DNA of 62,200 nucleotides, counting the filler. It is 9 parts of 9 records of this genome, joined end to end, with 100 filler letters (N's around TTAATTAATTAA, not from the genome) between each part and the next. Parts side by side here need not be neighbours in the genome. Positions count along the whole stretch, not along the records: positions 40,315 to 44,100 come from SRR7504441_3108; 8 more parts are not named here. One strand, 5' to 3'. This document shows positions 14,549-57,913 of the stretch, piece after piece. Each line of letters opens with the position of its first letter. The stretch's first letter is position 1. The translations under genes and the position numbers were made by a program. Under the pieces are notes generated by a model. That model saw only the letters and a list, made by a program, of their open reading frames with translations, ran no database searches and was not told the origin of the DNA.

Positions 14549-14648
14549 NNNNNNNNNNNNNNNNNNNNNNNNNNNNNNNNNNNNNNNNNNNNTTAATTAA
14601 TTAANNNNNNNNNNNNNNNNNNNNNNNNNNNNNNNNNNNNNNNNNNNN
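14549..14648. other. Artificial contig linker N44-TTAATTAATTAA-N44
   Basis: Identical 100-nt spacer with stops in all six frames. Confidence 0.98.
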
Positions 14649-19212: not shown

Positions 19213-19312
19213 NNNNNNNNNNNNNNNNNNNNNNNNNNNNNNNNNNNNNNNNNNNNTTAATTAATTAANNNNNNNNNNNNNNNNNNNNNNNNNNNNNNNN
19301 NNNNNNNNNNNN
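19213..19312. other. Artificial contig linker
   Basis: N44-TTAATTAATTAA-N44. Confidence 0.98.
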
Positions 19313-22790: not shown

Positions 22791-22890
22791 NNNNNNNNNN
22801 NNNNNNNNNNNNNNNNNNNNNNNNNNNNNNNNNNTTAATTAATTAANNNNNNNNNNNNNNNNNNNNNNNNNNNNNNNNNNNNNNNNNNNN
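22791..22890. other. Artificial contig linker
   Basis: N44-TTAATTAATTAA-N44. Confidence 0.98.
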
Positions 22891-28800: not shown

Positions 28801-31800
28801 CTGCAAGCAACGAGAGTGCCATATCAGGCTTGAGTTTCAACGCGACTGCCCCTGCCAGAACGGTAGTGCACTTGCGCTGTCGAATGACGTGTGCACCATC
28901 CAGTACAGCAAGATAGCCAGACGAGCAAGCTGCTTCCGTGTTGGAGCTTGGGCCTGTGACTTTGAGTGCAGCAGCAAGCACACGCGAAACCATGTACGAT
29001 GCAAGTGGCAACATGAAGTCATGCGTGTCGACGCCCGTAAATATGCCTACTGTCTGGAATAGTAGACATCCATGTAGACTGGTAAGACTCTGCTGGATTG
29101 TGTCCATTAGTACTATCATGTGCGCATCTAACATTTCTGTGTCCAATGAATTCACTGCGAACGAAGACTTGTCCTCGGGTAACAGCTTATCCAAGTACAA
29201 ACCTGCGAGAACACCAGACGAAATCCCTCGGCACGCTTGTATCCAACGCTGCGGTATGACTCCACTCAACTGGCTTTGATGACACAAGACAAGTGCATCC
29301 CAGAACAGTGTGAGCTGCTTCATATCCCCAGGTAGTCTGTGGCCTATTGCAACTACGCTGATGGGTATATCATCCTTATTTGCTAACACCGCCGGTTGCA
29401 TCGCCTTGCTACAGTGAAGGAGATCACGAGAGGATGAACTCACTTGAGCCGAGAGAGATGCTGTAATGGCCCGAATGGTGGGGTGCTCGATGGCAAACGA
29501 CGTTGGCAACGTCAGTCGGAGCTCGCGCTCTAGCGACGCAACTAGTGCGAACATGGCGAGTGAATCGAGGCCAATATCTTCACGCAGGGACGCATCTAAA
29601 TCTAAGCACACCATTGAGCAATTGACCAGCTGAGAGACTTGACCCACCACCAGAGACTCTAGAGAATAGTCACTGAGCAGGATTGCATCGGGGTGTTTCA
29701 GAATGAGTAGTCCGGAATCTTCAGGTGTCCGAGGTTGAAGTATGCTGTCTATTGATTCACCGCTCGTCAGCCATGGTTTGAGGTTTGCCTCGACATCGGC
29801 TGGCAGGCTGTTCAAATTGCCAACCGACAGCTCAGGATCTAGCCACTCTGACTTGAGTGAGTCAACTAACGCTGCAAATGGATAAGGTAACGGGTGCATA
29901 TTGCTGTCAATCCGCTGCTGCAGCATGTGACAGGTGTCGCACCACGCCCTGGCATTTTCGCGCACAAACTCTGACGGCGTGAATCGACGATGATAATCTA
30001 TGCAACGATCGAGAACTTGATTCTGCAGTACCTGGTACAGCTCTGGTAGATGCTCAAATAACCGAGAAGCGCCATCCATGCTATCACCAAGCGTAAATTC
30101 GGTGTTTGAGAACTGAGGCAAATCAGCTTCCAGCAGCTCGCGCGAAAGGTCAGTGTCCTGTAACAGACGGAGAACAATCTCTGCCGAGAACTTGAAACCT
30201 TCTAAAGCACTGGAGCCAAATGGGCTCTGGTGTCCTCTTACGTCATCCAAAATGGCCTCAGCAATGCAGAATAGGTTGTGGTCGACCATGCCGAACCCGT
30301 TCATGGTGGACGTACCAACGATGTCGCTGATCTGGCCGTTGGTAGCAAACCCCACACATTTGATCAGCACACTGGCTGGCAGGGCCTTTAACTCGACCGA
30401 TGTAGGGCTAGCATGAAAGATCGTGCTTGGAGCGAGCCTCGATACTGTACCTGTCTGAACGCTCACCAACTTGAGATGGTGTCCAATGTACCAAATGTCT
30501 GACACACTGATGGTGTGCCTCGGAGGAGTAAACACCCCCCGTGCAGCCTCAACGGGCAGCGGTGCTCCAACAGCCTGATGGAGGCCGTGCCATGCTTGTA
30601 GCACGCGTAGAGCACCTGGTGGGGCGTGTTGCAGCTTCTCGCTGTAAGGTCGAGCAAAGTTGAGGTAATCCACAATGAGGGGACAGACCCCACCAATTCT
30701 GCGGCATAGCACACCAACACGGACGGCACCTTGTTCAAGGGCAGTTCGAGTATTTTCCACCGCAAAGGCGCCCATACCAACAATCACAACATCTTGGTCT
30801 TGAAAGTCGACTTCCTCCACCTCACGTCCAATCCCATAGCATATGGAGCCGCCAAAGCAGTCTTCTCCAGGATAGGCCAGTCGCCTTGGATGGCCAAGCC
30901 GTCGGTTCACACACACAATAGCTGCATCACAGTGGATGATTTGGTTGCTCCCAGTGTGGAGATTGACGCATTTTACCTGGTATGCCAGCTGACCCTCATG
31001 GACCTTTTGGATAGTCTGGACATCGGTATTGAGCCACAAGCAAGCCCTCATTTCAGTCGCAACAGCATGAAGATCTGCCAACACCTCGCAGGCAGTTGAA
31101 TGGTCCGAGTTGGGTCGGTCGGGTCGAGTGGCAATACGGTACGCCGGTTCAGAGGTATTCACCCGTGATGTTCCTGCAACACAGTGGTCAGGTGAACACA
31201 CACAAGCATGCCAGCAGGTGTCACTGTTTGCATGGTGCAGCCAAACGCCACCAACTCCTGCAGTACGTTCAAGGATGCAGACTTGCAGATCCGCCTGCCT
31301 GAGCCGACGTGCTACAGTTAGACCTGCCACGCCTGCTCCAACCACTACGACCTGTGCTTTGGGAGGCAGCCGCTTGTCGTCCTTAGGAAGCCAGCTAGGC
31401 CATGTCGCATTCGAATCTGTCTGAGCGGTAATAATTTCTGCCAACTGAAGAGCATTGACATCGAAGAGTTGCTTCAGAGGACAGCAGGACAACTCAGGCC
31501 AGCTGCTAGTATAGTCCGAAGGCGGCTGTATGCTGTCAGTCCAAATGTCAACGATTGGAAGGACACTTGGATCGGTTTTTGGAGCAAAGTAAAGAGATTT
31601 GATGTTACTGGAGCAAGCCACGGCATAGAGGCAGATCGGAGAGGCGAAGGTGTACTTGCGAGCCAGAGCCTGTGCAACACCATATGCCCAAATCGCACCA
31701 GTTTCCATTCCAACAAACACATTTGATACATCACTATATGCTGACACATGACTAACTAATTCCTCCGTCTGATCTTTGTTAAAGGCTGCAGCATCGCTGC

Positions 31801-34800
31801 ACCGGATAGCCAAGACGTCAAAGGACCGTGCACCAAGTGCCTTTGCCGTGACCCCCAACCAGCTGAGGCTCTCAGTTTCTGTGAAAAAGATAAAGCAGCG
31901 AGAACTAGGCTGGACAAGACCACTGTAGCCTCCAGACACTCGCCTGACTACACCTCGATGCCCAGGCCATGCCCAAGGAATCACAGCGTCCATCTCTGCC
32001 TCGGCCTCTAGCGTGGTGTCCCAGGCAGCAATCTGCTTGCCACACCATGCTTCGGAGTGTGCATCACCAGGTGTCCACCAGGTGAACGCTTGTTGCTGGT
32101 ATAACACCATGTATTTCACATCAAGCACGAGGGCAGAAGATAGGTCAGCAGTCATGAGTGACTTGCCCAGCATAGCATGACAGTTTGTACCAGTATACCC
32201 AAAGGAGCTCACTCCTGCTGTATTGGCGAGGATGCCACTGTTCTGACTCGGCAGCACCACGCAGAAAGCTTCCAGATCCAGATATGGGTTGACCCTACTC
32301 AAGTGAAGGTTGGGGGGCACCCAGCTCAGCTGCAGCCCCACCACCACTCTCCCGAGCCCTGCCAGCCCAGCTGAGTACTCCGTGTGACCAGTCCGGGTCT
32401 TCAGCGCTCCAAGCGCAGCGGGAGTTTGCTCATCGCCACTACCAAGCACGCTATGTAGTGCCTCCACTTCGACTGGGTCACCCAGGGCTGTGCCCGTGCC
32501 ATGAGTCTCCACTGTGTGCTTGGTACTGGCTTCTTTTCCTACCATGGCTAGCTTGATGACAAGCTGCTGTGCTGGTCCGCTTGGAGCTGCAAAGTTGGCA
32601 CTGCGGCCGTCCTGATTAACCCCGCTTCCAGTCAGCACCACAACATGCGCTCCAGAATCACTGTGATAGATCTGCAACAGCGCTGCAAAGCAACCCTCGC
32701 CCCGACCGTAACCGTCCGCCGAGCCATCAAAAGTCTTGCTCTTGCCGTCTAGTGCCAGCGGCAGCCCAGGATCCCGCACCCAGGCCACCCAGTGTGGATG
32801 AATGTTTACTCCAGCACACAGCGCCGCCATGCCTCGGTCCATTCTAAGGCACTGTCGAGCTGCGTCCACCGCCACCAGTGAGGACGAGCAGGCTGTGTCA
32901 ATCGCCAGGCAGGGGCCCCGCAGTCCTAGTGTAAATGAGATCCGGCCAGCAGCAGCACACGCCGATTTCCCGTGGTTGCTAAACACTGTGTGATCACGGC
33001 CATTGACCAAGTTGACCCAAACTGACTGGCCAAAGCCGATAAACACCCCGAGCTCGGCCTGCATCAGCGTGTGCGTAGACCACCCACCTTGAACCAGCGC
33101 CCTAAATGTGGTCTGGAGGAGCAGCCGCTGGTTGGGGTCAGTGGCCATGACCTCAGCAGGACTCATGGAGAACAGAACAGGATCAAACAGCTGAGCATGC
33201 TGCACGAAGTGCCCTGGAAGCAAAGTGCTATCGAGCGGCAGCGTTGCAGGATAGGCCCGGTCAGACGGTGGAAGGCATAAGGGATCATTACCAGTGCAAA
33301 GATCTGCCCAGAATGCAGGCAGGGTAGAGCAGCCGCCTGGACTGGCACAGGTAAGCGCAGTAATTGCACAGCACTTGACGGAGTTGGGACTAGTACCTGA
33401 CACAAGTCCTATGCTCGGCTGTTGACCGGCAGGACCTGCGGCTGCACAAGTCCTATGCTTGGCTGTTGCGCAGCAGGACTGCTGAGTGAGGTCTATTTGG
33501 TGCATTTGACCGAAATACTCAATGATTCCTTGGAGGGTAGGGTGAGTAAAGATGAGTGTCTGGGGTGTGCGGACACCAGTCATTCTCCTCAGGTCGTTGT
33601 TGAGGCGTACAGCCTGACGTGACGTCAAACCAGCGGCCATGAGCGGCATGTCCAAGCTGATCCAGATACCAGTGATATCTTTAACCACCTCACGTATTGG
33701 CTGGTGCACTAATGGATCTTGCACCAAAGTTACTGGTTCGTGGCTGTGCAATGGCTCACTGGTGGCAGCTGGAGGCTTCGCTGGGCTCTTCGCCTGTTTT
33801 GTGTGTGACGACACTGGACTGAGCAGAGGCAAGATTGCATGACTTTGCTCGTTCTGTTGTCTCAAGATGATATGCACGTTCTGGCCCGAAGCAGAGGTGC
33901 CGTTTATTGACCCGCATAGCTCTACCTGGCTGTCAAGTATGGCAGCGCGGCCAACAGGCAGAATTAGCGAGGAGGATCCAGATATGATTTCTATGCACTT
34001 TGTCACACCCATGTGAACTGGAACAACATGATGATGCATCACAAGCGTCGAAACAACGAGCGCTACAATCCCGGCAGCATGCCCACTGTGTCCAATATTC
34101 GCCTGCAGCACACAGCAAAGCTCAGTCAGTCATGAAAGCCGCTCAACTGAGCCTCACCTTATGTCCCGCTAGAACCAAAGATCCTTTAGATGTCGCTGTT
34201 TCCTGCACCCGGGTAACAGCAGCAACTTCTGGATCATCTGAAGGAGGCGATCCCATGGCATGCAGATGCATGAATGAGAGCGGGCCTCTTTGAGGGCAGC
34301 GGGCTCTTCCTAGTGCTTCGAGCATAGTGCAAGCCATGCAATCAGGGTCGGCGAATCCTAGTGGTAATAGTGAACTCACGTATCCCAGAGTGGACGTGCA
34401 GATTTCGCCACACACTACCATGTTATTGGTCGAATGGGCTAAGCGGAAAGCAGCACAGCCCTCACTCCAGACGGCTCCATCCGCAGCACAATCTAAGGGA
34501 CGCATTCGACCGGATCGTGAGGTTATAGCCAATACATCTGGGGATACAGATTTCATATGGGTGCTATCCCTCGGAATCCGCAGTATCCCACCAATCGCTG
34601 CTACGTCACATTCGCCTCTGAGAATTGTTTGTAGCGCTTCGTGGATTGCGATGTAGCCAGAAGAACATGCCGCATCTGCGTTAGAGAGAGGGCCCCCGGC
34701 ATTCAGTTTTGATCCCACAATCCGGGACATGAGGTAGGTAGGTACGGTATCCACAGGTCCTGGCGCATACGAAGTAAAAACACCAATCTTAGTCTCCGAT

Positions 34801-35056
34801 GTAGCCGTGCACTCTGCTGTCCTTTGCATCACCTCAGCCAGAAGTTGCTCACTCGAGGCATGCAAATCATCAATAAGGCCAATGCTTGGCATGGCGTTCA
34901 ATCTAGAGGATGACAAGTAGTTGTTTGCTGCTGCAAGGGTTGACCACAGTAACTCCAAGCTATGCACCCGTGCTCCCAGAACACATGCCATTTTACAAAT
35001 GGATGGGAGAGATAGATCTGCAGCAACTTGAAGAGGCAGCTGGGAGGCTACAGGAG
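22891..35056 (-). CDS. Modular AT-less type I polyketide synthase (about 4000 aa seen, open at both ends): KS*-ACP-KS-TE-like-FMO-ACP-KS*-ACP-KS-DH-psiKR-MT-KR-ACP-KS
   Basis: Three ORFs joined by GT-AG introns 34103-34157 and 25025-25064, plus in-frame intron 31174-31224; DTACSS/HGTGT/GH KS motifs; ACP GLTS, GLDS, GVTS, GVDS; MT LEIGGGTGG; KR ITGGLGGVG; FMO GAGVAG and GMGAFA. Confidence 0.93.
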
Positions 35057-35156
35057 NNNNNNNNNNNNNNNNNNNNNNNNNNNNNNNNNNNNNNNNNNNN
35101 TTAATTAATTAANNNNNNNNNNNNNNNNNNNNNNNNNNNNNNNNNNNNNNNNNNNN
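35057..35156. other. Artificial contig linker
   Basis: N44-TTAATTAATTAA-N44. Confidence 0.98.
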
Positions 35157-38100
35157 GCGCAGCAGGCCCGGGTGGACGGCGCGCTCAAGAGCTTGAAGGA
35201 GCTCGAGGCGAAGCTGGTTGCAGTGCAGCAAACGGTGCGGCGAGCGGCTTGCACCGGGCTGACGGGGCGGGACAGGCGGACGAAGGGGCCAGCCAGGCGG
35301 AGACCGACGCGGGCGAGGCATCCCGGACGGTGGCGGAGGCCAAGTCGCTCGAGCAGGAGGCCGAGAACAAGGCCAGTGACACCACCCGGCTGCTGGCTGC
35401 CAGGAACAAGCTGATGGCAGCTCTCGCCAGAGCCGAGGCCCGAGCAGCTGAGGCCAAGGCCACAGCCGACAAGGCCAAGAAGCTTGCAGGGAGCGCCCAA
35501 GCCGAAGTGGCTGCAGCGCATACCGAGGTTCAGAAGAACAAGAGTCAGCTCGCGGATCTGAAAGCCGCGGTCGACAAGAAGCGAATCGAGGCCGAAGATT
35601 CTCAGAACAGGGCCCGCAAGGCCCAGATGGATGCGAGCGAGCTGAACACCGCGGTGGAGCAGGAGAAGCGGGCGCTTGCCGAGGTCGAAACTGAAGCCGC
35701 GGTGAGTGCACGAGAAGTGCGTGCCGACCAAGAGGCCCAGCTGGCTGCAGAGACGCAGGCCGCTAGGATCAAGAAGCAGCTTGAACGCAAAGAGGGCCGC
35801 GCCCAGGCGGCTGCGGAGAAGATGGAGAAGAAGGCCGCCGAGGCGACAGCCGAAGCCGCCAAAGCCGACCAGGAAGCGGCAAAGTTTGAGCAAAAAGAGA
35901 AGGAGGAGGTCGACGCGGCTGACCTGAGCAAAAGGAAGGCTGTGGCTCAACTGGAGGGGTCCGCAGAGGGGCAAGAGGCCAAGCTTGCTAAAGCCGAAAA
36001 GGACAAGGATCAGGTGGTGGAAGCCACTCAAGCCAGTGTGACAGCCGCCGAGGCCGAAGTGAACAAAGCGAAGCTTGCAGCCGCGGCAGAGAAGAACAAG
36101 GTAGCGGCGGCGCTCGCCGAGAAGGAGGCCGACTGCGCTAAAGAGCAGGTTGCTGTCGAGCAGCTGGACGAGCAGCAGAGCTCAGTATCCCACGACAAAG
36201 TGCAAGAGCTCTCCGACGAGAAATCCGCTGAAGCCGCTGAAGCTGAGGCAAGGACCGCAGCCGTGGCCGCCAAGGCGAGCAAGGCGTCAGTGGATACCGA
36301 GAAGGCGGTGGTGGCGCAGGCAGAGCAGGCCAAGGAAAAGCAACTGCAGGCCGCAGCCGCGCAGAAGGCCGCAGCCGAGCAGGCCAGCGCAGCAGCCAAC
36401 AAGGCATCGGCGCAGGCTGCCGTTGCGGCTCAGGCGGCTCAGTTGCAAGAGGAGCTGGCCAAGTCGCGTACCGCAGCTCTGGAGGGCCCCAACAGTGCGT
36501 TCAAAGCAGCAGAGGCCAAGGCGGCGAGGCGGACTGCAGCTGAAGAGCAGTACAAGGCTGGGGCACTCGAGGCTGCCAAGCTTGTCAAGCAGCGCGAGGC
36601 GTCTTCTCAGAAGGCCAAAGATGATCTGGCCGCTGTGGCCACACAGTCAATCGAAGTGGCGAGCGCGCTCTCCGAGGCCGCGGCTAAAAAGGAGAATCTG
36701 AAGAGCCAGCTGAGCCAGGCTGAGGGCAAGCTCACTGCACTGAAGGCCCAGGAGAAGATCGCCCAGGAGAAGGCCAAGGAGGCCGCCAGCGAGGCTAAGC
36801 AGGCTAGCAAGCTGCCCACGAAGACAGCTCAGGCACTGGACACAGAGAAGGAACAGCGGGACAGACTGCAGGCCAAAACTCGCGCACAGGAGGCTGATCT
36901 AGCTACCAAAAAGAGAAAGCTTGTGGTAGCAGAGCAGGAGCAGAAACAATTGAAGGACGAGCAGCGTCGTGTGGAAGCTAAGCTCGTGGACGTTGCCAAG
37001 AAGGCCAACAGCGAGAACGAGCTGCTTATGAAGGCCCAACTGGAGGCTAGGCAGGCGGCCAGCGAGAGCCAGATACTCTCAGCAAAGGTGGAGGCCGAGG
37101 AGATCAAGCGGTCAGGGCTTGCAGATCGAAAGGAGATCAAGTATCGCAGTTACAAGCAGGCGCAGGTGTTACTGGCAGAGGCAAATCAAGAAGCGAAGCA
37201 TGCGCGGCAGAAGGAAGCGGAAGTCGGTGAGAAGGTTGCCGCAGCCAAAGCCACCCTGGAGCAGCTTGAGAAAATGCTGCAAGAGAAAACAGGCAAGCAA
37301 GCAAAGGATATCAAGACGCTGGACGAGGCAGAGGAGCATTTGCAAGGTCTCGAGAGTATCCGGGACAAGGCTGTTGCAGCACAGCAGCAGGCAGAGGCTG
37401 CTCTCAAGTTGAGCCAAGAACAGGCCAGCTCGCTGAAGCAGCAGGCAGAGAGGCTGGAGGCTGCAATGGCTGAGCAGCGTAAGAAGCTGCTAGAGGCAAG
37501 CAAGCAGGAATCGCTTTCTGAGGATGAGGCCAAGCGGCTGAAGCAGGGACTTGAGCAGCTCAAGCAGCAGGTGGCTCAGACCCGCGAGCAGGAGCAGCTT
37601 GCGCTCACTCAGAAGGCCAAGCTGCAGGCACAGAAGGAAGCAGATATCGACAGAGTCAAGGAGCTCCAGCAGCAGATGGCCCGCACCAAGCAGCAAGCTG
37701 AGCTTGCCAAGCATAAGGCGGCCGAGGCAGAGCGCCAGATGAAGGCCAAGATGGAAGCTGACAAGCAGGCAGTCGACAAAGCCAAGGTAGCTCTTCGGAA
37801 GCAGGCAAAAGAGGGTGCGGACTTGGAGAAGCAGTTGGCTGGGCTCAAGGGCGCCGTAGCTGAGCAGCGAGGCAAGCTGAATAAGCTCAAGGCAGAGGAG
37901 AAGCAGGCGCAGGACGAGGCGTCGCTTCGTCAGACTCAGGCCAACCAGGCGGCTAAAATGGAATCCAAGCTGACTCAGCAGATGCCAGGCGCAGCGGCTA
38001 GTGCGGTGAAGGCAGACGCGGAAGCCGATTTGGTGTCTGTCAACCAGCAGCTGCAGCAGCTAGAGTCACAAGCGAAAGAAGCCTACCAGAACACTGTGGA

Positions 38101-40214
38101 CCAAGAAACATTCAAGACGGGCAGCGCATTGACTCAGAACAAGCTTAAGGCTGAGACCCACCAGCGGTCATTGAAATACCTGAAGCAGGACCTGGAAGCA
38201 GCAGACAAGCAGCTTGCCGAAGCACGCCAAGCGATGCAAGAAATCCGTGGGGAGCGCAACAATGCAAATGCTATGCACAAGGAGGAGCGAGCCAAGGAAA
38301 AGAAACAGGCAGAGGAGGCGGCAAAGGAGGCCGGTAAGACAGAGGAAGCGATCAGACTCATAGCAAGTGAGTACGCTGAGGAGGAGAAGAAGCGGAAACG
38401 CCGGATGGATGTAATCAATGGCAAGTTGACAGCTCAGCGGGAGGCGAAGGCCGAGGCTGAAATGGCCAGGCAGAAGGCCAACGAAAAGATCAAGCTTGAG
38501 ACGCGTGCGTTGGACGCACTGAAGGCTCAGAATCAACAGCTCCTTCATGACTCCAAGGTGGCCAAAGCCAACGCCAAAAAGAGCATGGCGACAGCTATCG
38601 AGGAGGCCAAGGTAACCGCTGCCGACAAGACAGCAGAGATCACTGGAAAGGAACCTCCCAAGGAGGAGCAGGCCTCTCCGGACCAGAAGAAGGCACTGGC
38701 AGATGCCCGTCTGAAGACGGAAAAGCTAGCCAAGGAGGCAGCAGCTGCCACCGAGGAGTGCAATCAAATGAGTGCAAAGGTCAAGGAGGCGCAAGGGGAG
38801 CTGAACAAGCTCGAGACGAAGCTGAAGGCGATAGAGGGAGTGATGGGTGAGCTCCAGGGTAAGGCAACCGCGCTGACCAATGATGTTCTGGAGCGACAGC
38901 AGAAGCAAGTGTCTGATTCAGTTGCGGCTGGTGAGGAAGTTGCCATGAAGCAGCAATCACAAGAGTTAGAACTTGAGAGCAAGTCTGTCCAAAAGAAAGA
39001 GAAGGACGCCGAAGCGAAGGAAAGAAAGATGGTAAAAGAGGCCAGTAAAGCAAAGGTGAAAGCAGCAGAGGCTGCTGACCAGCTGACCAAAGTGGAAAAA
39101 GAAGCCAGCGAAATGCTGAAAAAGGAAGGCCAGGCAGAAGGAAAGGCCATGCAGATGAAGCTATCACGGGAGGATGAGAAATCGCGACAGGAACTGATCG
39201 AGAAACAGCTGAAGGATGTCATGAAGCAACTCAAGAAGGCTGAAGACAAGGAAGCACAGGACAAGAGCAATGATGATAGCTCAAAAATGGAAGTCAGCAA
39301 GGAGGAAGGCCAGGAAAATGTGGACAAAGCACGGACTAAGAAGCTTGAAAAGGATGCAGCGAAGGCGCAGCAGGACACTGAGTCCGCTCAAAAGCAGGTT
39401 GAAAAGGCGAGCATGGCCCTAGCAGAAGCCAAACGCGACGAACCTGTCACTGACGCATTGGTAAAAACCGCTGCCAATAAAGTCATCGAGGCACAGAGCG
39501 TCGTTTCTCAGACTGCGACGTCCTATGAGGCCGCAAAGAAGGCATCCTCGTCGGCTGATCAAATCCTTAAAGGAGAGCAGGACCAGCTTACAGAGGCCAA
39601 GGCAAAGGTAGATGATGCTGAACGGGAAGCAGCGAATGTCGAGAACGCCAGCAAAGAAATGTTCAAGGCCCGCGACAAGGCCCAGAGTGAGCTCACAAAG
39701 GCTGAAAAGGACAGCGACAAGCACGATGAGGCAGTGAAAAAGGCTCAGGCCGACGATTCCAACGAGGCTCAACAGATTTCAAACGAGAATTCGCAGATTC
39801 GTATACTCAAGAAGCAGATCTCTGGTCAACGGGAACAGCGCACACTTGCAACCAAACAGGCCGATAGGATGCAAGCCGAGGCTAGAAATGACATGAAACA
39901 GGCAAACTCACTCGATATTGACGTCAAGCAGAACGTGGCAAATGTTGCCGGGTTCAAGAAGCAAGTTGCTGCCGCGGATGCAGCTGAGAAGGAGGCACAG
40001 CTCCAGAAGAAGGTGCAGGCAGCTGCGCTGAAGAAGGCGCAGCGCAAGCAGAGCAGCCAAACTTCTGCGCTGACAGATGCCAAAAATAAGGAAGACATTG
40101 CAACAGATCAGGAGCAACGGGCTGCCTCTGAGCTGAGCGTTGCCAAACAGGCTGTGCAAAACGCAAAAGCAAGCGTCAGCGAGACTGAAGCAGCAGCCGC
40201 TGCTGCAAAGAAAG
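35157..40214 (+). CDS. Very long A/K/E/Q-rich coiled-coil protein, truncated at both ends
   Basis: More than 1600 codons open; intron 35235-35275; almost no Pro or aromatic residues. Confidence 0.85.
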
Positions 40215-40314
40215 NNNNNNNNNNNNNNNNNNNNNNNNNNNNNNNNNNNNNNNNNNNNTTAATTAATTAANNNNNNNNNNNNNNNNNNNNNNNNNNNNNN
40301 NNNNNNNNNNNNNN
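40215..40314. other. Artificial contig linker
   Basis: N44-TTAATTAATTAA-N44. Confidence 0.98.
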
Positions 40315-41484
40315 AGCAATAGCAAGGCCTAAGCAAGGCCCGAGTTTAAAAAACTCGGCGAGAAACTGCGCATACTTCTGTACGTGCACGTTAAGTGGTG
40401 GCAGGACAAAGTACGAGGCTACGTGCTGTGACCCGTCTGAATACCCGACAGTGACTCTGGCGCGGCCATGAATCGCTCCACGGACCGCCACGGCATAAAA
40501 TCCCCGCTGGCCAGCAGGGACTGGACTCCCAAGGATGAGGTTTCCGGATGGGAACACGCTCGTATTTTGGATGTGCTGCCCTCTAGGAGGCAGTAAATGC
40601 AGAAATGCCTGCATGTCCGTCGCTATGGCGTAGCTTGGTACTGCTCGCATCACAGCAAACCCAGCGGAGATCAGAGTGTCCTCTTTGGCTCTCACAGACG
40701 ACGAAGCGAGTAACCTGTAGCTGAACACCATCTGCTTTCCAGGGGCGAGCACAGCTGAACTTGGCTCCACCCACTGGCTTCCGGTGGCGTTGGCCCATTC
40801 ATTCTCCGAGTAAGCCTTTGTGAGAGAGCTAATCTCATAAAAGCTGCCACCGGCGGCCTCCGTGAGGGGCCGCCACGCTTGGAACTCGGTGCCGGCTTCG
40901 GGGACAACCAGAAGCACCGGGCCTAGCCCAGTCACCCTCGTGACCGACACAAACCCGTGATGCGACCCGATCGAGGCGTCGACGAACGAGCAACTGCCTG
41001 CCAGCCCGTCCAGCGTGTTGGCGGCGCCCTCGTGCACCGACATGTCTGCAAACACCATTGAGGCTCCGAACCCGCCCAGCTCGACCGGGCCGGACCCGTT
41101 GTTCCCGAGCACAAACCACATCCGGATCCCTTCGCCCCCCTCTGCCGCCGCGAAGTGCCTCTCGAGCGTCAGCGACAATCCGGCCTCCTGGAAACACAGA
41201 GACGCCGACGCGAACTCCCCACGGGCCGGCGGGTCAGCAGGGACCACCGACTGGGCTGTGGCCGAGGACAGCGTGCTGTACGGGCCAGCGCCCACCCGGC
41301 GGGCACGCAGGGTCACGTCGCCCAGTCGGTGGGACACGTGGGACGATCGGTTGGGCGCGAGCTCAAACCTGTTGAGCTGGAGGGAGCCGATGGTCTGGCG
41401 GTCGGCGGTCAGCTGCACGCTTATCCCGCCGGCCTCGAAAGACACGGCCCGAGCTGCGGCCACAATCGCAAGCAGACTCGCCAT
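40315..41484 (-). CDS. Secreted DUF5695-like putative glycoside hydrolase, 3'-truncated
   Basis: Signal-like MASLLAIVAAARA; HRLGDVTLR, GFVSVTRVTGLGPVLLVVP, KAYSENEW, GRARVTVGYSDG motifs. Confidence 0.7.
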
Positions 41485-41555
41485 GCTCGGTCCCAGTGCG
41501 GCCTGCATTCTATGCCGTTATAAATCCGTTGATGTAATAACGACCAGGCTCGATC

Positions 41556-42470
41556 ATGGAGGTTGTACGGTCGTGCGCCCTGTCTGGGCTGGCCTCGTGC
41601 GCTGCAGAGGCGCTGACGCTGCCGATCGACGTGCTTAAGACCCGGCAGCAGTGCGCCGGCCCCGAAACCGGGCTGCTCGCCGCCGGCCGGCAGCTGGTGA
41701 CCGAACACGGCCTGGCGGGCCTGTTTCGAGGACTGGGCCCTGCGCTGGCCCGGCAGGCCACCTACGGCGCCATGCGATACGGGCTGTACGGTCCTTATCT
41801 CCGCCTGTGCGGTGGCCAGCCGACGCTGCTGATCCGGGTGGTAGCCTCGGTGGGCTCTGGAGCCACGGCGTCGCTACTCACCTCGCCGCTCGATCGGGCC
41901 AAAATCCTGATGCAGACCGGCACCTCGTCTCTCGGACTGGTGGGCACGCTGCGCGGTATCTTTTACAGGACTGGACTGCTCGGTTTGTGGAGCGGCGCGT
42001 CTTCCAGCTGCGCCCGAGCCGCATTCCTCACGGCAGGCGAATTGGTGACCCGAGGGGAGGCGAAGCGGGTCCTTCAAGGGTGGCTTGCGCCTGACGGACT
42101 GTGGCTGGTATTCTGCGCGGCCATGTGCTCAGGGCTCGTTGGTGTGGCGCTGAGTAATCCATTCGATGTGATGAAGAGCCGGATGATGGCAATGAAGCCC
42201 GGGCAGGGTGTTGGCATGTTGGACTGCTTCCGGACTTGTATCGCTGAGGAGGGTCTGCTGTCCTTGACGACAGGGTTTTGGGCCAACTATATGCGCAAGG
42301 CACCACATGTGGTGATAACATTTGTCTGCATTGACAAACTCCAATCCTCGGTTGACCAATACGGGGATGCCATTTGGATCATCCTCGTTCTAGCAATCGG
42401 CTTCTTGTTCTTTGTGGCTGATATCTCATCGAGGGCAGCCAGACCGGGAAGCAAACCAAGGAGAGGATAA
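41556..42470 (+). CDS. Mitochondrial carrier (SLC25; UCP/dicarboxylate-like)
   Basis: Three signatures PIDVLKTR, PLDRAKIL, PFDVMKSR; RQATYG motif. Confidence 0.92.
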   Translation: MEVVRSCALSGLASCAAEALTLPIDVLKTRQQCAGPETGLLAAGRQLVTEHGLAGLFRGLGPALARQATYGAMRYGLYGPYLRLCGGQPTLLIRVVASVGSGATASLLTSPLDRAKILMQTGTSSLGLVGTLRGIFYRTGLLGLWSGASSSCARAAFLTAGELVTRGEAKRVLQGWLAPDGLWLVFCAAMCSGLVGVALSNPFDVMKSRMMAMKPGQGVGMLDCFRTCIAEEGLLSLTTGFWANYMRKAPHVVITFVCIDKLQSSVDQYGDAIWIILVLAIGFLFFVADISSRAARPGSKPRRG

Positions 42471-42867
42471 AGAGGGTCGAGTACCGGCATTTAAAATCAT
42501 GCATGGAATACCGGTAATCATTCATGATGCATTTTATTGGCGCGGGAAGAACTACAGTACATGTACCCGGGATACCATTTAAATTGCGTGTGAAATGTGT
42601 GAAATGCGTAAAATGCATTTTTGACAAATCAATTAATGTGAGAAATGCACTTTATGTCATTGTTCAAAGTGTCTCAAAAGTGCGTGAGAAGTGAGAATCA
42701 TGCATCAAACCAACGGAGTTTAACGGACCCGCTCTGAGAGATGGCGAGCAGATCCTACGGGCACGGATGACGGATCTGACTCCTCAACAACATAATTATA
42801 GCTATTGAGGATTCATTGAGGATACGTACTTCGCGTGATTTTAAAAGTGTATATATAGTATAGTATA

Positions 42868-43273
42868 CTATCGTCTATGCTTGGTACCACCGCCCTTGGA
42901 TCCGGCAAGTTGCGCCAGATAGTCAACCATCAGCATGGTGCGCATGTCTGAATTCAGCGTGTCGACGTCGGCGTCGTACTCTAGCATGATCGACATCAGC
43001 TCCAATAACCCCTCGCCGCCCACGTCTAGCTGTGATTTGGCCCCCCGGAACGCGTAAAGGATCGCCGGCTCGTGGTGCCGGTCCCCGCGGCACACATCGG
43101 CCTGCATCTCACATAACTGTCTTACAACGTCCAGGTGTCCCGCCTGCGCCGCCAGCATCACTGCCGTCACCCCCTGGCCGGCTTCAGTGCAGTCCAAAGA
43201 CACCCGTGCGGCGAGCATGCTCCTCACCACCACCATATCCCCCGCAGCCGCCGCCTTCCGGAAGCGCTCCTCA
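42868..43273 (-). CDS. 3' exon of an ankyrin-repeat gene; its 5' exons appear on the opposite strand at 43585-43817
   Basis: AAAAGDMVVVRSML, GVTAVMLAAQAGHLDVVRQL, ADVDTLN; acceptor GGGCAG ending at 43274. Confidence 0.75.
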
Positions 43274-43295
43274 CTGCCCCACCAGTCACGCGCGC

Positions 43296-43532
43296 CCGGT
43301 CGTTGTCGCTCCAGGCCGAGCGGTTGCACTGGCTGAGGCCGTTCTGCCGGGGGTCCCACTGAATGTTCCCATACACCAGGTGTGTGACCACAGAGAAATC
43401 TATAGCAGACGGAGGGTAGTCGGCGTGCACTCCAGAGTACCAGCCCACCACGCGAGGCCGACCGGGCACCGGCCACTCCTGGCCCGCCGCACCGAGCACC
43501 CCTAACAGCACAGCAACTCCCGTGCAACGCAT
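43296..43532 (-). CDS. First exon of a secreted GH18 (chitinase-like) gene
   Basis: Signal peptide MRCTGVAVLLGVLGAAG, then PRVVGWY...PPSAIDFSVVTHLVYG. Confidence 0.7.
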
Positions 43533-43584
43533 CTCTGATTTCACCGCCCACTCGTCGGCTTTTTTTATGTTCGAGGCAGCACAC

Positions 43585-43817
43585 ATGGCGGACAGCCGGT
43601 TGCCGCCCCTCAAGGGCCGTGGGGCCAAGTTTGACCCGGTCGAATTTGAGGGCGGCCGCGCCGTCTCGCGGCTGCTGGACGGCTCACTGGCCGCCCAGCG
43701 CAGCCGGCACATCATCACGCAGGTGCCGGCTGCACTGGCAGGGACCCACCGCGTGGCGCAGGACGCCGCCGCCACGCTGGCCGGCTCCAGGCAGCGGCTG
43801 GAGGACCAAATGGACCG
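43585..43817 (+). CDS. Probable 5' exons of the ankyrin gene (MADSRLPP...EDQMD)
   Basis: ATG 43585, one in-frame 39-nt intron, phase-2 donor GTGCTG at 43818 matching the phase-2 acceptor at 43274. Confidence 0.6.
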
Positions 43818-43877
43818 GTGCTGCGGCTAAGGTTAGGTGGGTGCTCAGGCGGGGGGGGGGGCATAGCCCGGGGCTAG

Positions 43878-44100
43878 GTGCACCGGCTGGTGCGCCAGCA
43901 TGGGGCGAAGCTGCAGATCATCGCGCCTGCCTGGCTGCCGACAGCAGTGGCCAACGCCACGGTTAAGCGGAACCTGATGGCTACCCTGCCCGGGACTCTC
44001 AAGGCGGCCGGCAGCCCGGCTGGGAGCGGCCCAGGCACTAATGCGGCTTGGAGGGACTTTTGTTCAACCTGTCCAGACATTGCACTGGACAGCAACAACT
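43878..44100 (+). CDS. Probable continuation of the GH18 gene, truncated by the contig end
   Basis: Acceptor CTAG ending at 43877, then VHRLVRQHGAKLQII..VANATVKRNLMATL, matching the next GH18 helix and strand. Confidence 0.6.
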
Positions 44101-44200
44101 NNNNNNNNNNNNNNNNNNNNNNNNNNNNNNNNNNNNNNNNNNNNTTAATTAATTAANNNNNNNNNNNNNNNNNNNNNNNNNNNNNNNNNNNNNNNNNNNN
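44101..44200. other. Artificial contig linker
   Basis: N44-TTAATTAATTAA-N44. Confidence 0.98.
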
Positions 44201-44514: not shown

Positions 44515-45570
44515 ATGGCAGGTGCGCTCCCGGTGTCCGCGGCGCTGGCTGACCGCCGGGCAGGAACAACCGACATGCAAAGCAACAACATGCTCATCGA
44601 CAACAACCAGACCGGCGACCTGATTGCGGTCAAAGTGGCCCACGCCGACGACCTCCGCCGGTTCTCGATCGACCGCTCGGCGGCCGACGAGCTCGTGGCC
44701 CGGGCGATCGGGTTCTGGCCCGGACTCGCCGAGCCCCGGGTGAGCTTCCTCGACGACGAGGGCGACCAGATTACTCTGGCCTCCGCGGCCGACATTGCGG
44801 AGGCCGTCTCCGGCGTCCGTCAAGGCCAGACGCTCCGGCTCACCGTCACGGAGGCGGCCGGCCCGGAGCCCGGTTTCTTCCCGATCATGCACGCGCTCTT
44901 CCGGTCGCACGGCAAAGGGAAGGGCAAGGGCGGCAAGGGCGCCAAGCTTGCAACGAAGCTTGGGGTCTCGATGGAAGAGGCCCGTGAGCTGATCGCGATG
45001 GCACACGAGGGCAACGCGGAGGCCAAGAAGGTGGTCCAGGAGGCCCGGGCCGGGATGATGGCCGAAGCGCTTGGGAAGCAACCGGAAGAGATGGCCCAGC
45101 TGATCCAAGCCGCGCACTCTGGCGACCAAGAGGCCCACGAGCAGCTCCGGTCCCTCTGGGCTGAGCATCGGGCCGCCAAGGGCAAGGGCCACAAGGGCCA
45201 CCACGGCAAGGGCTGCCACGGCAAGGGCGAAGGCCACAAGGGCTGCCACGGCAAAGGCAAAGGCCACAAGGGAGGCCACGGCAAGGGCAAAGGCCACAAG
45301 GGCTGCCACGGCAAGGGCAAAGGCTGCCTCGGTGGCAAGGGCAAGCGCCTGGCTGCCGCTGCCGGCATCTCGCTCGACGACGCCCGCGAGCTGATCCGAA
45401 ACGCCAAGGACGGCGACGAGAAGGCGCGTGCCAAGATCCACGAAGTGATTGCTCGGCACGGCGGCGGCCGGTTCGGCGGCCTGTGTCGGCTCCGGCAGCT
45501 CGGCCGGCGAATGGGCTGGGCGCTTCGCTCCGCCTTGGGCCGTCTGTCGGTGAACTCGGACTCGGACTGA
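44515..45570 (+). CDS. PB1-domain protein with helical repeats and G/K/H/C-rich repeats
   Basis: IAVKVAHADDLRRF...SFLDDEGDQITLAS (conserved Lys plus OPCA motif); in-frame intron after ATGGCAG. Confidence 0.8.
   Translation: MAGALPVSAALADRRAGTTDMQSNNMLIDNNQTGDLIAVKVAHADDLRRFSIDRSAADELVARAIGFWPGLAEPRVSFLDDEGDQITLASAADIAEAVSGVRQGQTLRLTVTEAAGPEPGFFPIMHALFRSHGKGKGKGGKGAKLATKLGVSMEEARELIAMAHEGNAEAKKVVQEARAGMMAEALGKQPEEMAQLIQAAHSGDQEAHEQLRSLWAEHRAAKGKGHKGHHGKGCHGKGEGHKGCHGKGKGHKGGHGKGKGHKGCHGKGKGCLGGKGKRLAAAAGISLDDARELIRNAKDGDEKARAKIHEVIARHGGGRFGGLCRLRQLGRRMGWALRSALGRLSVNSDSD
45178..45345 (+). repeat. Imperfect 30-nt coding tandem repeat (GHKGCHGKGK)
   Basis: Read directly, about 5 copies. Confidence 0.9.
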
Positions 45571-51297: not shown

Positions 51298-51397
51298 NNN
51301 NNNNNNNNNNNNNNNNNNNNNNNNNNNNNNNNNNNNNNNNNTTAATTAATTAANNNNNNNNNNNNNNNNNNNNNNNNNNNNNNNNNNNNNNNNNNNN
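51298..51397. other. Artificial contig linker
   Basis: N44-TTAATTAATTAA-N44. Confidence 0.98.
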
Positions 51398-54511: not shown

Positions 54512-56618
54512 TTACAAGAAGTGATCCTCACTCTCATCACAAGTGTTTGCTCGAGTCACTGCTTCAGGGTCACTTTGATCCTCCAATCCGCAGATTTTTG
54601 TAATGATATATGGCGTAACACGGAAAATCATTGGAGTCAAAAGCAGCCCGATGACAGTTGTATGGACAAGAAGCAAGTGCATCTGTGTGGATAGCATTCC
54701 TGATTCCCGGGCATTGGCAGCCAAGATAAAAGAGAACTCTCCAATCTGAGATAGACCAAACCCAATTGAGAAGGCTGTAGTCCACTGGTATCGGAAAGAT
54801 CTAACTACAATTGCCATAAGCAAGGTCTTCAGAAGTAAAACTCCGACTACAAGGGCAATGATGAGACTTGAGTTACTCAAAATAAAATGGACGTCCACCC
54901 GCACTCCTATAATTGTAAAGAACAGCGCCGCAAAAATATCTCTCACTGGCTCCAGCTTGTCGAGAACTTTGTGGGAATGTTTTGAATTGGAGGATAGCAC
55001 AAAGCCAGCTATAAAAGCGCCTACCTCGGTCGAGAACCCCATGTATTCAGTTGATGCTGAAGCACACAGACATACTGCAATCGCAGCTAGAGTAAAGACT
55101 TCGTCGGACTGCAGCCGAAGGAGGAAATCAACGAAGCGCGCTGCACAGAGCCTACCCACGAGCATCATGACACCACCCGTAATAAAGAGAGAGGCCAGTG
55201 TGTAGATAGTAGCTGCAGCTGCCTGCACATTATTATCTACAGCTGGCTTTGCTACAGCTGGCTTTGCTGTCTGTTCGTTGGGCAAAACAGCAAGCATGAT
55301 ACCCAGGGCCATGTCCTGGAAGATGAGAATGCCAACCATCGCATTGCCGGCCAGACTTTTGAGTTTGTTGGTGCTCTTGAGACTTTTGAGCACTACAGCC
55401 TGCACGGTCACAACTAGTTTCAGTCAATGCACAATAGAGGTAAAATGACCGTCGAGCTCATGGAGATGAAGCACCCGACAAATAGAGCTTGATCACCGCT
55501 GATTTCGAGCTGAGATGCTGCAAACAGCACTACCTGCACGAGCACATCGCTTTCAGTTGCATACAAGCGAGGCCACGCACCAAAATTGTCATCATCATCG
55601 CTGCCGCTCCGCCCATGATGCTCACTCGCCACACGGCCTTGATCTCCTCGAAACTCATCTCCAGTCCGAGCGCAAACAGCAAGAACGTCACGCCCAGCTG
55701 CGCCAACGTCTGCATCTGCACAAAACTCTCCACGAAGGCAAACATGGAAGGACCGATCAGTGAGCCGACAATGATGTAGCCCAGCAAGGTCGGGAGCCCC
55801 ACAGCTTGCGCGGCCAGGCCGGCAACGCCAGCCGAGATCAGAATGACAACCAGATTATGCATCAAAATGCTGTCTGTTGTTTCGGCTGCGTCTGATCCGG
55901 CCTTGACTAACACGTACTCATTATGCGCACTGTCAATCAACTTCGCAGCTGGTTCGGTCGACGACAAGGTGCTGTTCACGTCGGTCTGAAGCTTGGCGGG
56001 CACCTTGACCACAGTGGCTATCTCTCCGTGTGTCTCCACGAGCGTCTGGTTCAGAGAGTTGGGCTGGTTCTGCTTCTTCTTGCTCACTTGGTGGACCAGT
56101 GCCCCGAGCTTGTTTATTCCCTCCGTGTTGTCCTCGTCGTCCGCCGATGCTCGAGGCACAACCACCTCCTCCGTATCGTTGAGCACATTGGCCTTGACCA
56201 GCTCGTTTGTCTCTATCGCCAGCTCGCGCTTCTCCTCCTCCACAGCGGTCTGCCCCTCTCGCAGCTTCTCCTCGGCCTGGATCAGCTGGCTCTGGAGCCG
56301 GTTCCGCTCCTTTGCCGCTGCCAGGCTCTCCTGCTTCTTCGACTCCAGCTGGAGCTCCTTCTCCTTGTGCACCGCCAGCTGCTTCTGCTTCTTCTCATCC
56401 TCGGCCTCCTTCTCCCTCTCGTGCTCCACCTCCTCCAGCGCCCGGGTCTTCTCCTCCAGCTCCGCCTTCAGCCGGGCCAGCTGCGCGTCCGCACCCCCGC
56501 CCTCGGAGTCATCGTCGCCCTCCGAGACATCCCCAACCGCTCCCGGTAGCGACCAGGCCAGGGCCAGCGTGAGCACCAGCACCGCACACGCCCCGCGGCG
56601 GCTCGAGCGGCCCAGCAT
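54512..56618 (-). CDS. CPA2-family K+/H+ antiporter (KEA4-6/TMCO3-like)
   Basis: Signal peptide and coiled coil; GYIIVGSLIGP, LFALGLE, SMSST, ILIFQD, GAFIAG, LSQIGEFSF; two introns. Confidence 0.9.
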
Positions 56619-56795
56619 GCCGGTCGTGGGGCTGTGCACCGACTGCCGGCAAGAGCAAGACGCCGAGGCGGTGGACTGAAGGCCGGTGTGCTCACCGCTA
56701 GACTCACTAGGACCTCGCAGCCGGTCGCGAGTAGTGGCAGCAGGTGAGATCGGTCCCGTCCTGAAGTGTGACGGAGGTCGGGAGCCGTTGAAGAA

Positions 56796-57813
56796 ATGGT
56801 CAGCAGGCTTGTGAGGGTGGTGCTGACTAGCTGCCTTGTTGCGCAGGCGGGTTACCCTCTGGGAGCCGGGTGCTACAGTTCAGCGACCATGGGGAACGTG
56901 GTGTCGCCGCGGGCAGTGGAGGAGACCGCGGCCGAGTGGTGGGCGGTGGTGAATGCCGAGGACCGCAAGCGGCACGACTGGATATTGTCCCGCGAGCGCG
57001 AGGCCACCGAGCGGCTCGAGCGGCAGATCCTGCGCCAGAACAAAAAGGTGCCCGGGCCCTGCCCTTGCCGCTGACGACGGCCAGATGCTGCCGGGCGATT
57101 ATGCGATCTCGAGGCTGGGTGAGACCGCGCACAGGAAGGGGATCGTGGCAGACTGCATGCAGTCCGAGGCCCTGGAGCAGCACACCGAGCTGCGGGCCGA
57201 GCTGCGCCGGACGCCGGGCGAGCGGATGCTCAATTGGAACCACTTCGGCCGGCAGGACAGGCAGGACTGGATTGAGCACCACCAGCGGCGGACGCACCAC
57301 CGGCATGGGATGAACGTCGGGCTCACGCACAACCAGCTCGACCCTCAGGCTTCGGCGGCTTGCGAGGCGGGCAAGTACGTCTGCCCGGTTGGTATTCGGC
57401 TGATCTAGCCGGTGGGCAGGAGCATTGAAGCGTACGAGTCGGCCGTGCAGGCGCGGATTGAAACGTCAAGCATGCAGCATGCCTTGGACACGTTCTGCAA
57501 TCGGAACTGTGTAGGGCAGCGCCCAGCCGAAGGTGCGTCCGCGCGTGTTTTACCAACCCGCCCGCCTTTGCTTCGATTCAGCCGTTTAAGCGGTTGTGTG
57601 TTTGTGCAGGTTTCTACAAGCACATTCGCAAGCCTTATGTGGACTAGACTTAAGTGCCTAGATACTTTATTAATGGTTATCGTAATGGACGCATCTATAA
57701 TTTTACATCTCGTTGGATACAAAGCGCTCGTGCTCGAGCCCGAGGTCAAACTCTCGTTCAGCACAGCACGAGTAGTAATGATATGGAGGGCCGGGCACGC
57801 CCTCCTGAGAGTG
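56796..57813 (+). CDS. Hypothetical multi-exon protein, probably 3'-truncated
   Basis: ATG-only first exon, intron 56799-56846, further GT-AG introns joining frames. Confidence 0.55.
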
Positions 57814-57913
57814 NNNNNNNNNNNNNNNNNNNNNNNNNNNNNNNNNNNNNNNNNNNNTTAATTAATTAANNNNNNNNNNNNNNNNNNNNNNNNNNNNNNN
57901 NNNNNNNNNNNNN
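57814..57913. other. Artificial contig linker
   Basis: N44-TTAATTAATTAA-N44. Confidence 0.98.

Follow-up and report, generated by a model that had tools for sequence, protein, structure and literature searches.

The last 1.2 kb of a short contig, within a stretch of 62,200 nt put together from nine contigs (the window), carries two consecutive parts of one GH18 gene on opposite strands and pointing apart, an arrangement that, judged by alignment to homologues, is well beyond chance. The inversion that separates them is one element of a deletion-inversion-deletion cluster at the contig's end. The explanation favored here, with a probability of roughly 0.5, is that the whole cluster is a local assembly or amplification artefact; the junctions would then have originated in the tube or the assembler and not in the cell. 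A first-pass annotation of this DNA had proposed that flipping about 540 bp repairs two divergent genes at once, and had offered an ON-OFF switch, an inversion allele, reciprocal trans-splicing or an artefact as possible causes.

The window and the source of the DNA

The window consists of nine separate contigs of 3.5-14.5 kb each, joined by eight linkers of the same make-up (44 N, TTAATTAATTAA, 44 N), so that features close to linkers lie at contig ends, and contigs standing side by side need not be neighbours in the genome. The inverted block belongs to contig 40315-44100 (3786 bp), where it occupies the final 830 bp, and the open reading frame (ORF) of the GH18 continuation is truncated by the contig end at 44100. 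The other 2.6 kb of this contig carries DUF5695 and Mito_carr, each as an intact ORF.

Each of the contigs has a GC content of 54-64%, and they are highly compact, with long unbroken ORFs that encode, among others, a modular polyketide synthase (more than 4000 residues), a photolyase, an XPG-type nuclease and a mitochondrial carrier. Parts of contig 40315-44100 were found at 99-100% identity and low depth in seawater or marine metagenomes of six studies; seven of the nine sequencing runs listed held such parts, with a word share of at most 0.10 in each, and no RNA run was among the runs listed as containing the contig. Three window proteins were absent from a collection of 15 billion proteins on exact look-up, and scans of the sequence for Rfam families, tRNAs and bacterial promoters and terminators gave nothing useful. 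The DNA is eukaryotic, and its source is an uncultured marine eukaryote, known as a fragmented draft.

Several features elsewhere in the window were recorded in passing. The minus strand of 22891-35056 encodes a giant modular type I polyketide synthase, open at both contig ends, with several KS, ACP, KR, methyltransferase, DH and flavin-monooxygenase domains, and its ORFs of 716, 3026 and 303 aa are linked via inferred introns of 40 and 55 nt. The next contig is filled entirely by one plus-strand ORF of 1685 residues (35159-40213), which has no Pfam match, the top codon score of the window (0.50), and a strong purine skew, with the AT skew reaching 0.46. At 45147-45344 on the plus strand, a tandem array with a 15-nt period encodes a Lys/Gly/His/Cys-rich repeat (KGKGHKGCHG-like), in an ORF that has a weak PB1-domain match under the cut-off (E 2.8e-4). 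A Na+/H+ exchanger at 54515-56879 on the minus strand is divided between two ORFs that cover profile positions 6-93 and 119-368; the gap between these ORFs is 109 nt and probably holds a small exon and introns.

A GH18 gene divided between two strands

The coding pieces, junction zones and linkers are collected in Table 1. The first GH18 piece, whose N-terminus looks hydrophobic by eye, is oriented away from its own continuation. After its 79 residues the minus-strand ORF passes 43296 and runs out of frame into the ankyrin exon (43272-42871). On the plus strand, the ORF that opens at ATG 43585 meets a stop at 43828-43830 in its present orientation, in a frame different from that of ORF 43878-44100. 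The first-pass annotation had described both of these broken frames correctly.

Table 1. Positions, within the window, of the coding pieces and junction zones near the end of contig 40315-44100 and of the linkers between contigs
Feature	Position	Strand	Remarks
Ankyrin-repeat exon	42868..43273	-	stop 42868-42870; internal junction 42924/42925
Left junction zone	43274..43295	.	22 nt, non-coding; minus-strand reading ends CAG right before the ankyrin exon
GH18 first coding piece	43296..43532	-	79 residues; ATG 43532-43530; start of barrel
Head-to-head spacer	43533..43584	.	52 nt between two start codons; presumed shared promoter
MADSRLPP... exon, presumed first exon of the ankyrin gene	43585..43817	+	77 codons + 2 nt
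Right junction zone	43818..43877	.	60 nt, non-coding; 11-G run at 43851-43861
GH18 continuation	43878..44018	+	homologue residues 50-94
Late GH18 piece	44019..44100	+	homologue residues about 197-226; in-frame join to previous piece
Linkers 1-4	14549-14648, 19213-19312, 22791-22890, 35057-35156		44 N, TTAATTAATTAA, 44 N
Linkers 5-8	40215-40314, 44101-44200, 51298-51397, 57814-57913		44 N, TTAATTAATTAA, 44 N

On their own, the GH18 pieces of the window matched no Pfam family, and a PDB sequence search with the two pieces gave only non-significant chitinase matches (E 3.3). Word-index protein searches with the GH18 exon, at the longer and near lengths, returned nothing, and an exact 24-nt pattern from the same exon matched neither prokaryote genome contigs nor viral contigs (0 matches in each). 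An exhaustive HMMER search of 1.84 billion representatives with the GH18 query gave four matches. Two of them, P0001 and P0004, were dropped as repeat proteins that cover short parts of the query only; the others are P0002 (151 aa, E 4e-10, 51% identity) and P0003 (166 aa, E 8.4e-7, 55% identity), with E-values taken over the whole library. P0006, of 288 residues, is a cluster mate of P0003. The Pfam GH18 family (PF00704, cut-off 29.6 bits) recognizes both P0003 (E 1.1e-8, 35.6 bits) and P0006 (E 3.3e-13, 50.4 bits), and it is only by way of P0002, P0003 and P0006 that the GH18 identity given to these pieces earlier turns out to be right.

Residues 1-37 of P0003 and P0006 align by tblastn with 43448-43338 on the minus strand. 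Their residues 50-94 align with 43878-44012 on the plus strand, with BLASTP E-values of 3e-10 (P0003) and 2e-10 (P0006), or 3e-6 and 4e-7, respectively, when tblastn is run over the whole window. P0002 is likewise continuous across the join of the two GH18 parts. More distant GH18 loci were surveyed by a metagenome scan in which 84 stretches yielded 12 loci, GC-rich and with 26-29% identity to P0003 where aligned. The match was collinear on a single strand at 11 of the 12, the last being a 1.07-kb contig that ends at the match; no neighbour of the MADS or ankyrin kind was detected at any of the 12 at E 0.01 or less. The one collinear coding sequence that is expected of a GH18 gene was not found in the window.

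It could be held that there is no inversion at all, that the four coding pieces are four small genes and that their pairing is a coincidence. The MADS ORF ends at a stop of its own and might make a protein of 81 residues, an internal Met is present in the ankyrin ORF, and no homologue joins the MADS and ankyrin exons. That Met, however, lies inside the first repeat, and the three homologues pass without interruption from the 43448-43338 match to the 43878-44012 match, just as the 11 distant loci keep to one strand; for the GH18 half, the homologues already contradict the idea, which is very improbable as a whole.

The reading frames were also assessed by a codon-usage score trained on 15 long ORFs of the window, which averages 0.224 in frame and -0.35 off frame and exceeds 0.15 in only 0.13% of off-frame windows. 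The score was 0.132 for the first GH18 piece, 0.312 for the continuation, 0.356 for the ankyrin exon and 0.276, a value typical of in-frame windows, for the MADS exon. By this measure, each of the four pieces is coding in the frame proposed for it.

The ankyrin exon was recognized by Pfam as Ank_2 (E 2.1e-8), Ank (E 2.1e-7) and Ank_4 (E 1.6e-6), all past their cut-offs; a word-index protein search at the near length returned nothing for it, and the MADS exon had no Pfam match. We infer that the MADS exon leads into the ankyrin exon as one gene, because the ankyrin exon offers no start codon ahead of its first repeat and its sole Met falls within that repeat, because the MADS exon scores as coding, because un-inverting the GH18 gene puts the MADS exon upstream on the right strand, and because an in-phase intron then becomes possible. 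A second head-to-head pair was noted on the same contig at 41509-41555, with start codons 47 nt apart as against 52 nt for the pair described here, and spacers of 47 and 52 nt imply extremely short shared promoters and 5′ leaders.

The GH18 gene is damaged at a second place. At 44018/44019 its frame leaps from homologue residue 94 to about residue 197: residues 52-74 of the continuation ORF, which lie 6 residues past the end of the residue-94 match, align with P0006 residues 204-226 (BLASTP E 1e-5; tblastn E 0.024), and neither BLASTP nor tblastn found a counterpart of P0006 residues 95-203 anywhere in the window. Stretch 43878-44100 is GH18-like in both of its parts; the first-pass annotation would have taken homologues showing that it is not GH18, together with in-frame expression of the present arrangement, as a refutation. 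The deletion amounts to about 100 residues (about 300 bp), is in frame and includes the catalytic motif. In GH18 enzymes this motif is DxxDxDxE, in strand 4. The motif DGMEFDWE, identified by eye in P0006, falls in residues 95-193, a stretch absent from the window, and DxxDxDxE was not found in the GH18 pieces of the window.

What the flip does and does not restore

A scripted flip of 43296-43836 opened both genes, and each then had a GT-AG intron of 41 nt in the correct phase, as had been claimed. Elsewhere in the window, ORF continuity points to three introns, of 40, 55 and 63 nt, with the donors GTGGGC, GTGAGG and GTGCGG; the 41-nt introns match the local style, since the inferred introns span 40-63 nt and have GTG donors. 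By itself, this splice arithmetic is weak evidence for the flip, because the non-coding gaps of 22 and 60 nt make up a fixed 82 nt, and 41 + 41 is one of several ways of dividing it. When the exon ends were kept constant, a canonical structure came out of 11 of 1403 breakpoint pairs, all of them with the left break at 43295/43296 and the right break anywhere in 43821-43877. One of these solutions leaves the GH18 gene intronless and gives the ankyrin gene a single intron of 82 nt, in keeping with the three homologues, all of which are intronless there. The inverted block measures 541 nt (roughly 540-580 bp), and its inversion drops no coding base.

The earlier claim that the flip repairs both genes at once does not hold, since the flipped GH18 gene is still short of about 100 residues and the ankyrin gene of at least about 200 nt (see below). 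This weighs on the notion that the block is a reversible promoter/first-exon cassette, which by its orientation would turn both genes ON or OFF. If it were real, such a switch would be a form of gene control that, to our knowledge, is essentially unknown in eukaryotic nuclei. The flip does bring back a canonical exon-intron structure for both genes, its breakpoints leave every coding base intact, and an engineered inversion of the Peg3/Usp29 bidirectional promoter is described as swapping promoters together with first exons (PMC5515438). Set against this, flanking inverted repeats are limited to a 6-nt pair, CCGGTC at 43296-43301 and GACCGG at 43813-43818 (the GACCGG that had been noted near both ends); no longer inverted arms were found at the block ends, the whole window having just two inverted-repeat pairs, both unrelated. 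No recombinase was seen among the other genes of the 3.8-kb contig, the GH18 gene lacks its catalytic core and the ankyrin gene a segment in either orientation. A scan for similar swapped pairs, suggested in the first-pass annotation, came out empty: among 38 further ORFs of the window, neither the opposite orientation nor another family split between strands turned up. The flip is not regarded as a gene switch, because it is one of four junctions crowded at a contig end and because undoing it gives no working GH18 gene; a reversible cassette is given very little credence. The same slight chance is accorded to a variant in which 43296-43836 or 43296-43877 would be a natural phase-variation cassette of an ultra-compact marine picoeukaryote, working without long inverted repeats, with the deletions as unrelated strain differences. 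Recombination within the 6-nt inverted pair was considered separately and rejected by reasoning, as the flanks would be unchanged and neither frame restored.

The DNA might also be correct as assembled and its genes expressed through reciprocal trans-splicing, or through cryptic cis-splicing to fusion proteins. On paper, the GH18 exon in its present orientation can be joined to the ankyrin exon in frame, by GT/GC-AG splicing, in 72 ways. We know of no mechanism, however, that pairs two divergent pre-mRNAs for such reciprocal trans-splicing; on the plus strand, a join from the donor at 43818 to 43878 is out of frame and reaches a stop after about 33 codons, and the GH18 core is missing whichever way the transcripts are spliced. 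Trans-splicing is unsupported, and this explanation is given very little credence.

Comparison with contigs from other samples

Contigs of four metagenome runs were aligned to contig 40315-44100. No contig among these runs bridges 43295/43296 or 43836-43878; coverage is sparse, and it is zero at 43363-43489 and 43617-43997. Matches of 18-35 nt from run X1, one of them ending at 43296, were discounted as too short or mismatched.

The X2 and X3 contigs, which come from two studies, both diverge from the window at 42924, X2 with 201 unlike letters and X3 with 58. Near this site, hand translation of the 30 letters shown per side found no open frame other than the one continuous with the ankyrin ORF, and the ankyrin gene of the window is short by at least about 200 nt at 42924/42925, apparently in frame. 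At the other end of the cluster, an X2 contig equals the window over 44019-44099 with 0 mismatches, and its preceding 139 letters differ. The last 30 of these differing letters translate by hand, in the frame of the window, to TIHIALPFYG, which resembles TVNLAVPNYA at residues 194-203 of P0006. Since X2 has GH18-like coding sequence upstream of 44019, the same species retains the middle of the GH18 gene elsewhere. The longer form was thus found in two of the two studies that reach 42924 and in the only one that reaches 44019.

Outside the junctions, the contigs from other samples are nearly identical to the window (0-2 mismatches per 70-272 nt), with about four base differences in about 925 aligned nt. 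At base 43018 the window differs from X2 and X3, which share the other base, and it is thus a haplotype distinct from theirs. Two further disagreements were noted along the contig. X2 leaves the window at 40355, 40 nt from the contig's opposite end; in 40315-40355 the DUF5695 ORF reads differently in the window and in the X2 contig, whose match is 40355-40403, and this stretch may reflect either strain variation or a faulty tip of the contig. The AT-rich convergent 3′ intergenic region at 42480-42860, which contains short repeated motifs, varies far more than the genes flanking it: the sole matching X2 contig aligns over 93 nt, has 5 mismatches and 4 gaps there, and departs from the window to either side.

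Four junctions therefore lie within 1.2 kb at the contig end, at 42924, about 43295, 43836-43877 and 44018. The pieces between them measure 371, 541 and 182 nt, and the skipped stretches about 200-300 nt. Three of the four fall in GC-rich 40-nt windows (71st-96th percentile of the contig). Microhomology is 1 nt at 42924, the one junction visible from both sides, and apparently 0-1 nt at the inversion ends.

The origin of the junctions

In the most likely native layout, the GH18 and ankyrin genes would stand head to head, about 50 nt apart, each of them intact, and the last 1.2 kb of the contig would be a mis-built copy of this ordinary locus. A block of roughly 540-580 bp, with the spacer and both first coding pieces, would have been reversed in the contig, and about 300 bp of the GH18 gene and at least about 200 bp of the ankyrin gene skipped. 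The cause would be a local assembly error or chimeric amplified DNA, in which pieces of 180-540 nt from a low-coverage, GC-rich stretch near a contig end were joined misoriented and over gaps.

This account is consistent with the position of the block in the last 830 bp of a short contig, one of nine, and with the crowding of four junctions into 1.2 kb, as against two intact ORFs over the other 2.6 kb. Other samples carry longer forms, and X2 departs from the contig at its opposite end as well. The coding pieces are undecayed, with 0 stops or frameshifts and normal codon scores. Besides the GC-rich setting of three junctions, the right junction zone contains the 11-G run, the sole homopolymer of at least 8 nt in the 62-kb window. 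Chimeras formed in multiple displacement amplification (MDA) are described as mostly inverted, with a distance peak at 250-300 nt and usually less than 10 kb (PMC1855051; PMC9984789), a geometry to which the 180-540-nt pieces and 200-300-nt skips correspond. Several junctions per amplified molecule are reported in bioRxiv 10.64898/2026.06.11.730069, and local errors without read support are on record for metagenome assemblies, with 13 in one 1.13-Mb genome as the example given in PMC7111523.

Some features sit less well with an artefact. Both deletions keep the frame and the inversion is coding-neutral, an outcome that random breaks would give in a few percent of cases by a rough estimate. It is rare for a De Bruijn assembler to invert or skip sequence unless repeats mislead it, and there are none here. 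The window's distinct haplotype, marked by base 43018, could carry real structural differences. MDA chimera junctions are described as usually showing 2-21 nt of complementary overlap (PMC1855051), as against the 1 nt of microhomology at 42924.

The same observations argue for a real and recent clustered break-and-rejoin event in one strain or haplotype, in which a deletion, an inversion and a deletion within about 1.2 kb would have inactivated both genes. Such a rearrangement could have come about by end-joining after several breaks or by replication template switching, and the contig would break here since the population is structurally mixed at the locus. Assembled junction k-mers normally come from real reads, and structural heterogeneity within a population also ends contigs. 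A repeat able to mislead an assembler is absent, the junctions show the 0-1 nt of microhomology given above, the haplotype is distinct, both deletions are in frame and the inversion breakpoints avoid coding sequence. Variants with several junctions, including inversions with deletions, are described as a known class in human genomes (PMC6286558). On the other side, three structural differences against about four base differences in about 925 nt is a very high ratio unless they arose in a single event, the window's junctions occur in no other sample (at sparse coverage), and the cluster sits at one end of a contig from a fragmented assembly, the opposite end of which also conflicts with X2. A real rearrangement is accordingly a serious possibility, at somewhat under even odds. 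An artefact and an inversion allele, both named in the first-pass annotation, thus stay live, since none of the contigs from other samples crosses 43295/43296 or 43836-43878.

A scrambled germline gene of the ciliate type was also considered and rejected, since there is no spacer DNA between the pieces, and what is lacking here is coding sequence in other samples.

If the junctions are real, the locus would represent a small, clean, one-step clustered rearrangement in a wild protist, which is of modest interest. If they result from assembly or amplification, as is favored here, the lessons are practical ones: contig ends should be marked in windows stitched from several contigs, and where a rearrangement is easily undone on paper, comparison with homologues over the full length of the gene should come ahead of any biological reading.

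Comparison with known systems

Bacterial invertible promoter switches of the fimS and hin type have defined inverted repeats and a dedicated recombinase. They share with the switch imagined here the idea of a short promoter-bearing block whose orientation sets expression; this locus, in contrast, lacks longer inverted repeats, has no recombinase on its contig and belongs to a eukaryote with spliceosomal-type introns. In the mouse Peg3/Usp29 inversion, as here, a bidirectional promoter and both first exons of divergent genes are inverted, but the mouse case (PMC5515438) is a man-made 4-kb inversion, not a natural switch, and no deletions go with it. It is the closest functional analogue of the imagined switch.

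Human variants of the delINVdel type range from kb to Mb in scale and have their deletions directly at the inversion ends, whereas the deletions at this locus are separated from the inversion ends by 371 and 182 nt, all within a span of 1.2 kb. What is alike is the presence of at least three junctions per event and the combination of an inversion with deletions (PMC6286558; bioRxiv 10.1101/281683).

MDA chimeras and errors in draft assemblies resemble the locus in being local (less than 10 kb), with mostly inverted joins and deletions a few hundred nt apart (PMC1855051; PMC9984789), and they are described as yielding false structural variants and misassemblies (bioRxiv 10.64898/2026.06.11.730069; PMC7111523). 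The 541-nt block and the skips of about 200-300 nt agree with such joins. The differences lie in the microhomology, 0-1 nt here and 2-21 nt in the account of PMC1855051, and in the inversion, which here looks balanced. On the whole, the pattern comes closest to amplification or assembly chimeras or to multi-junction complex structural variants.
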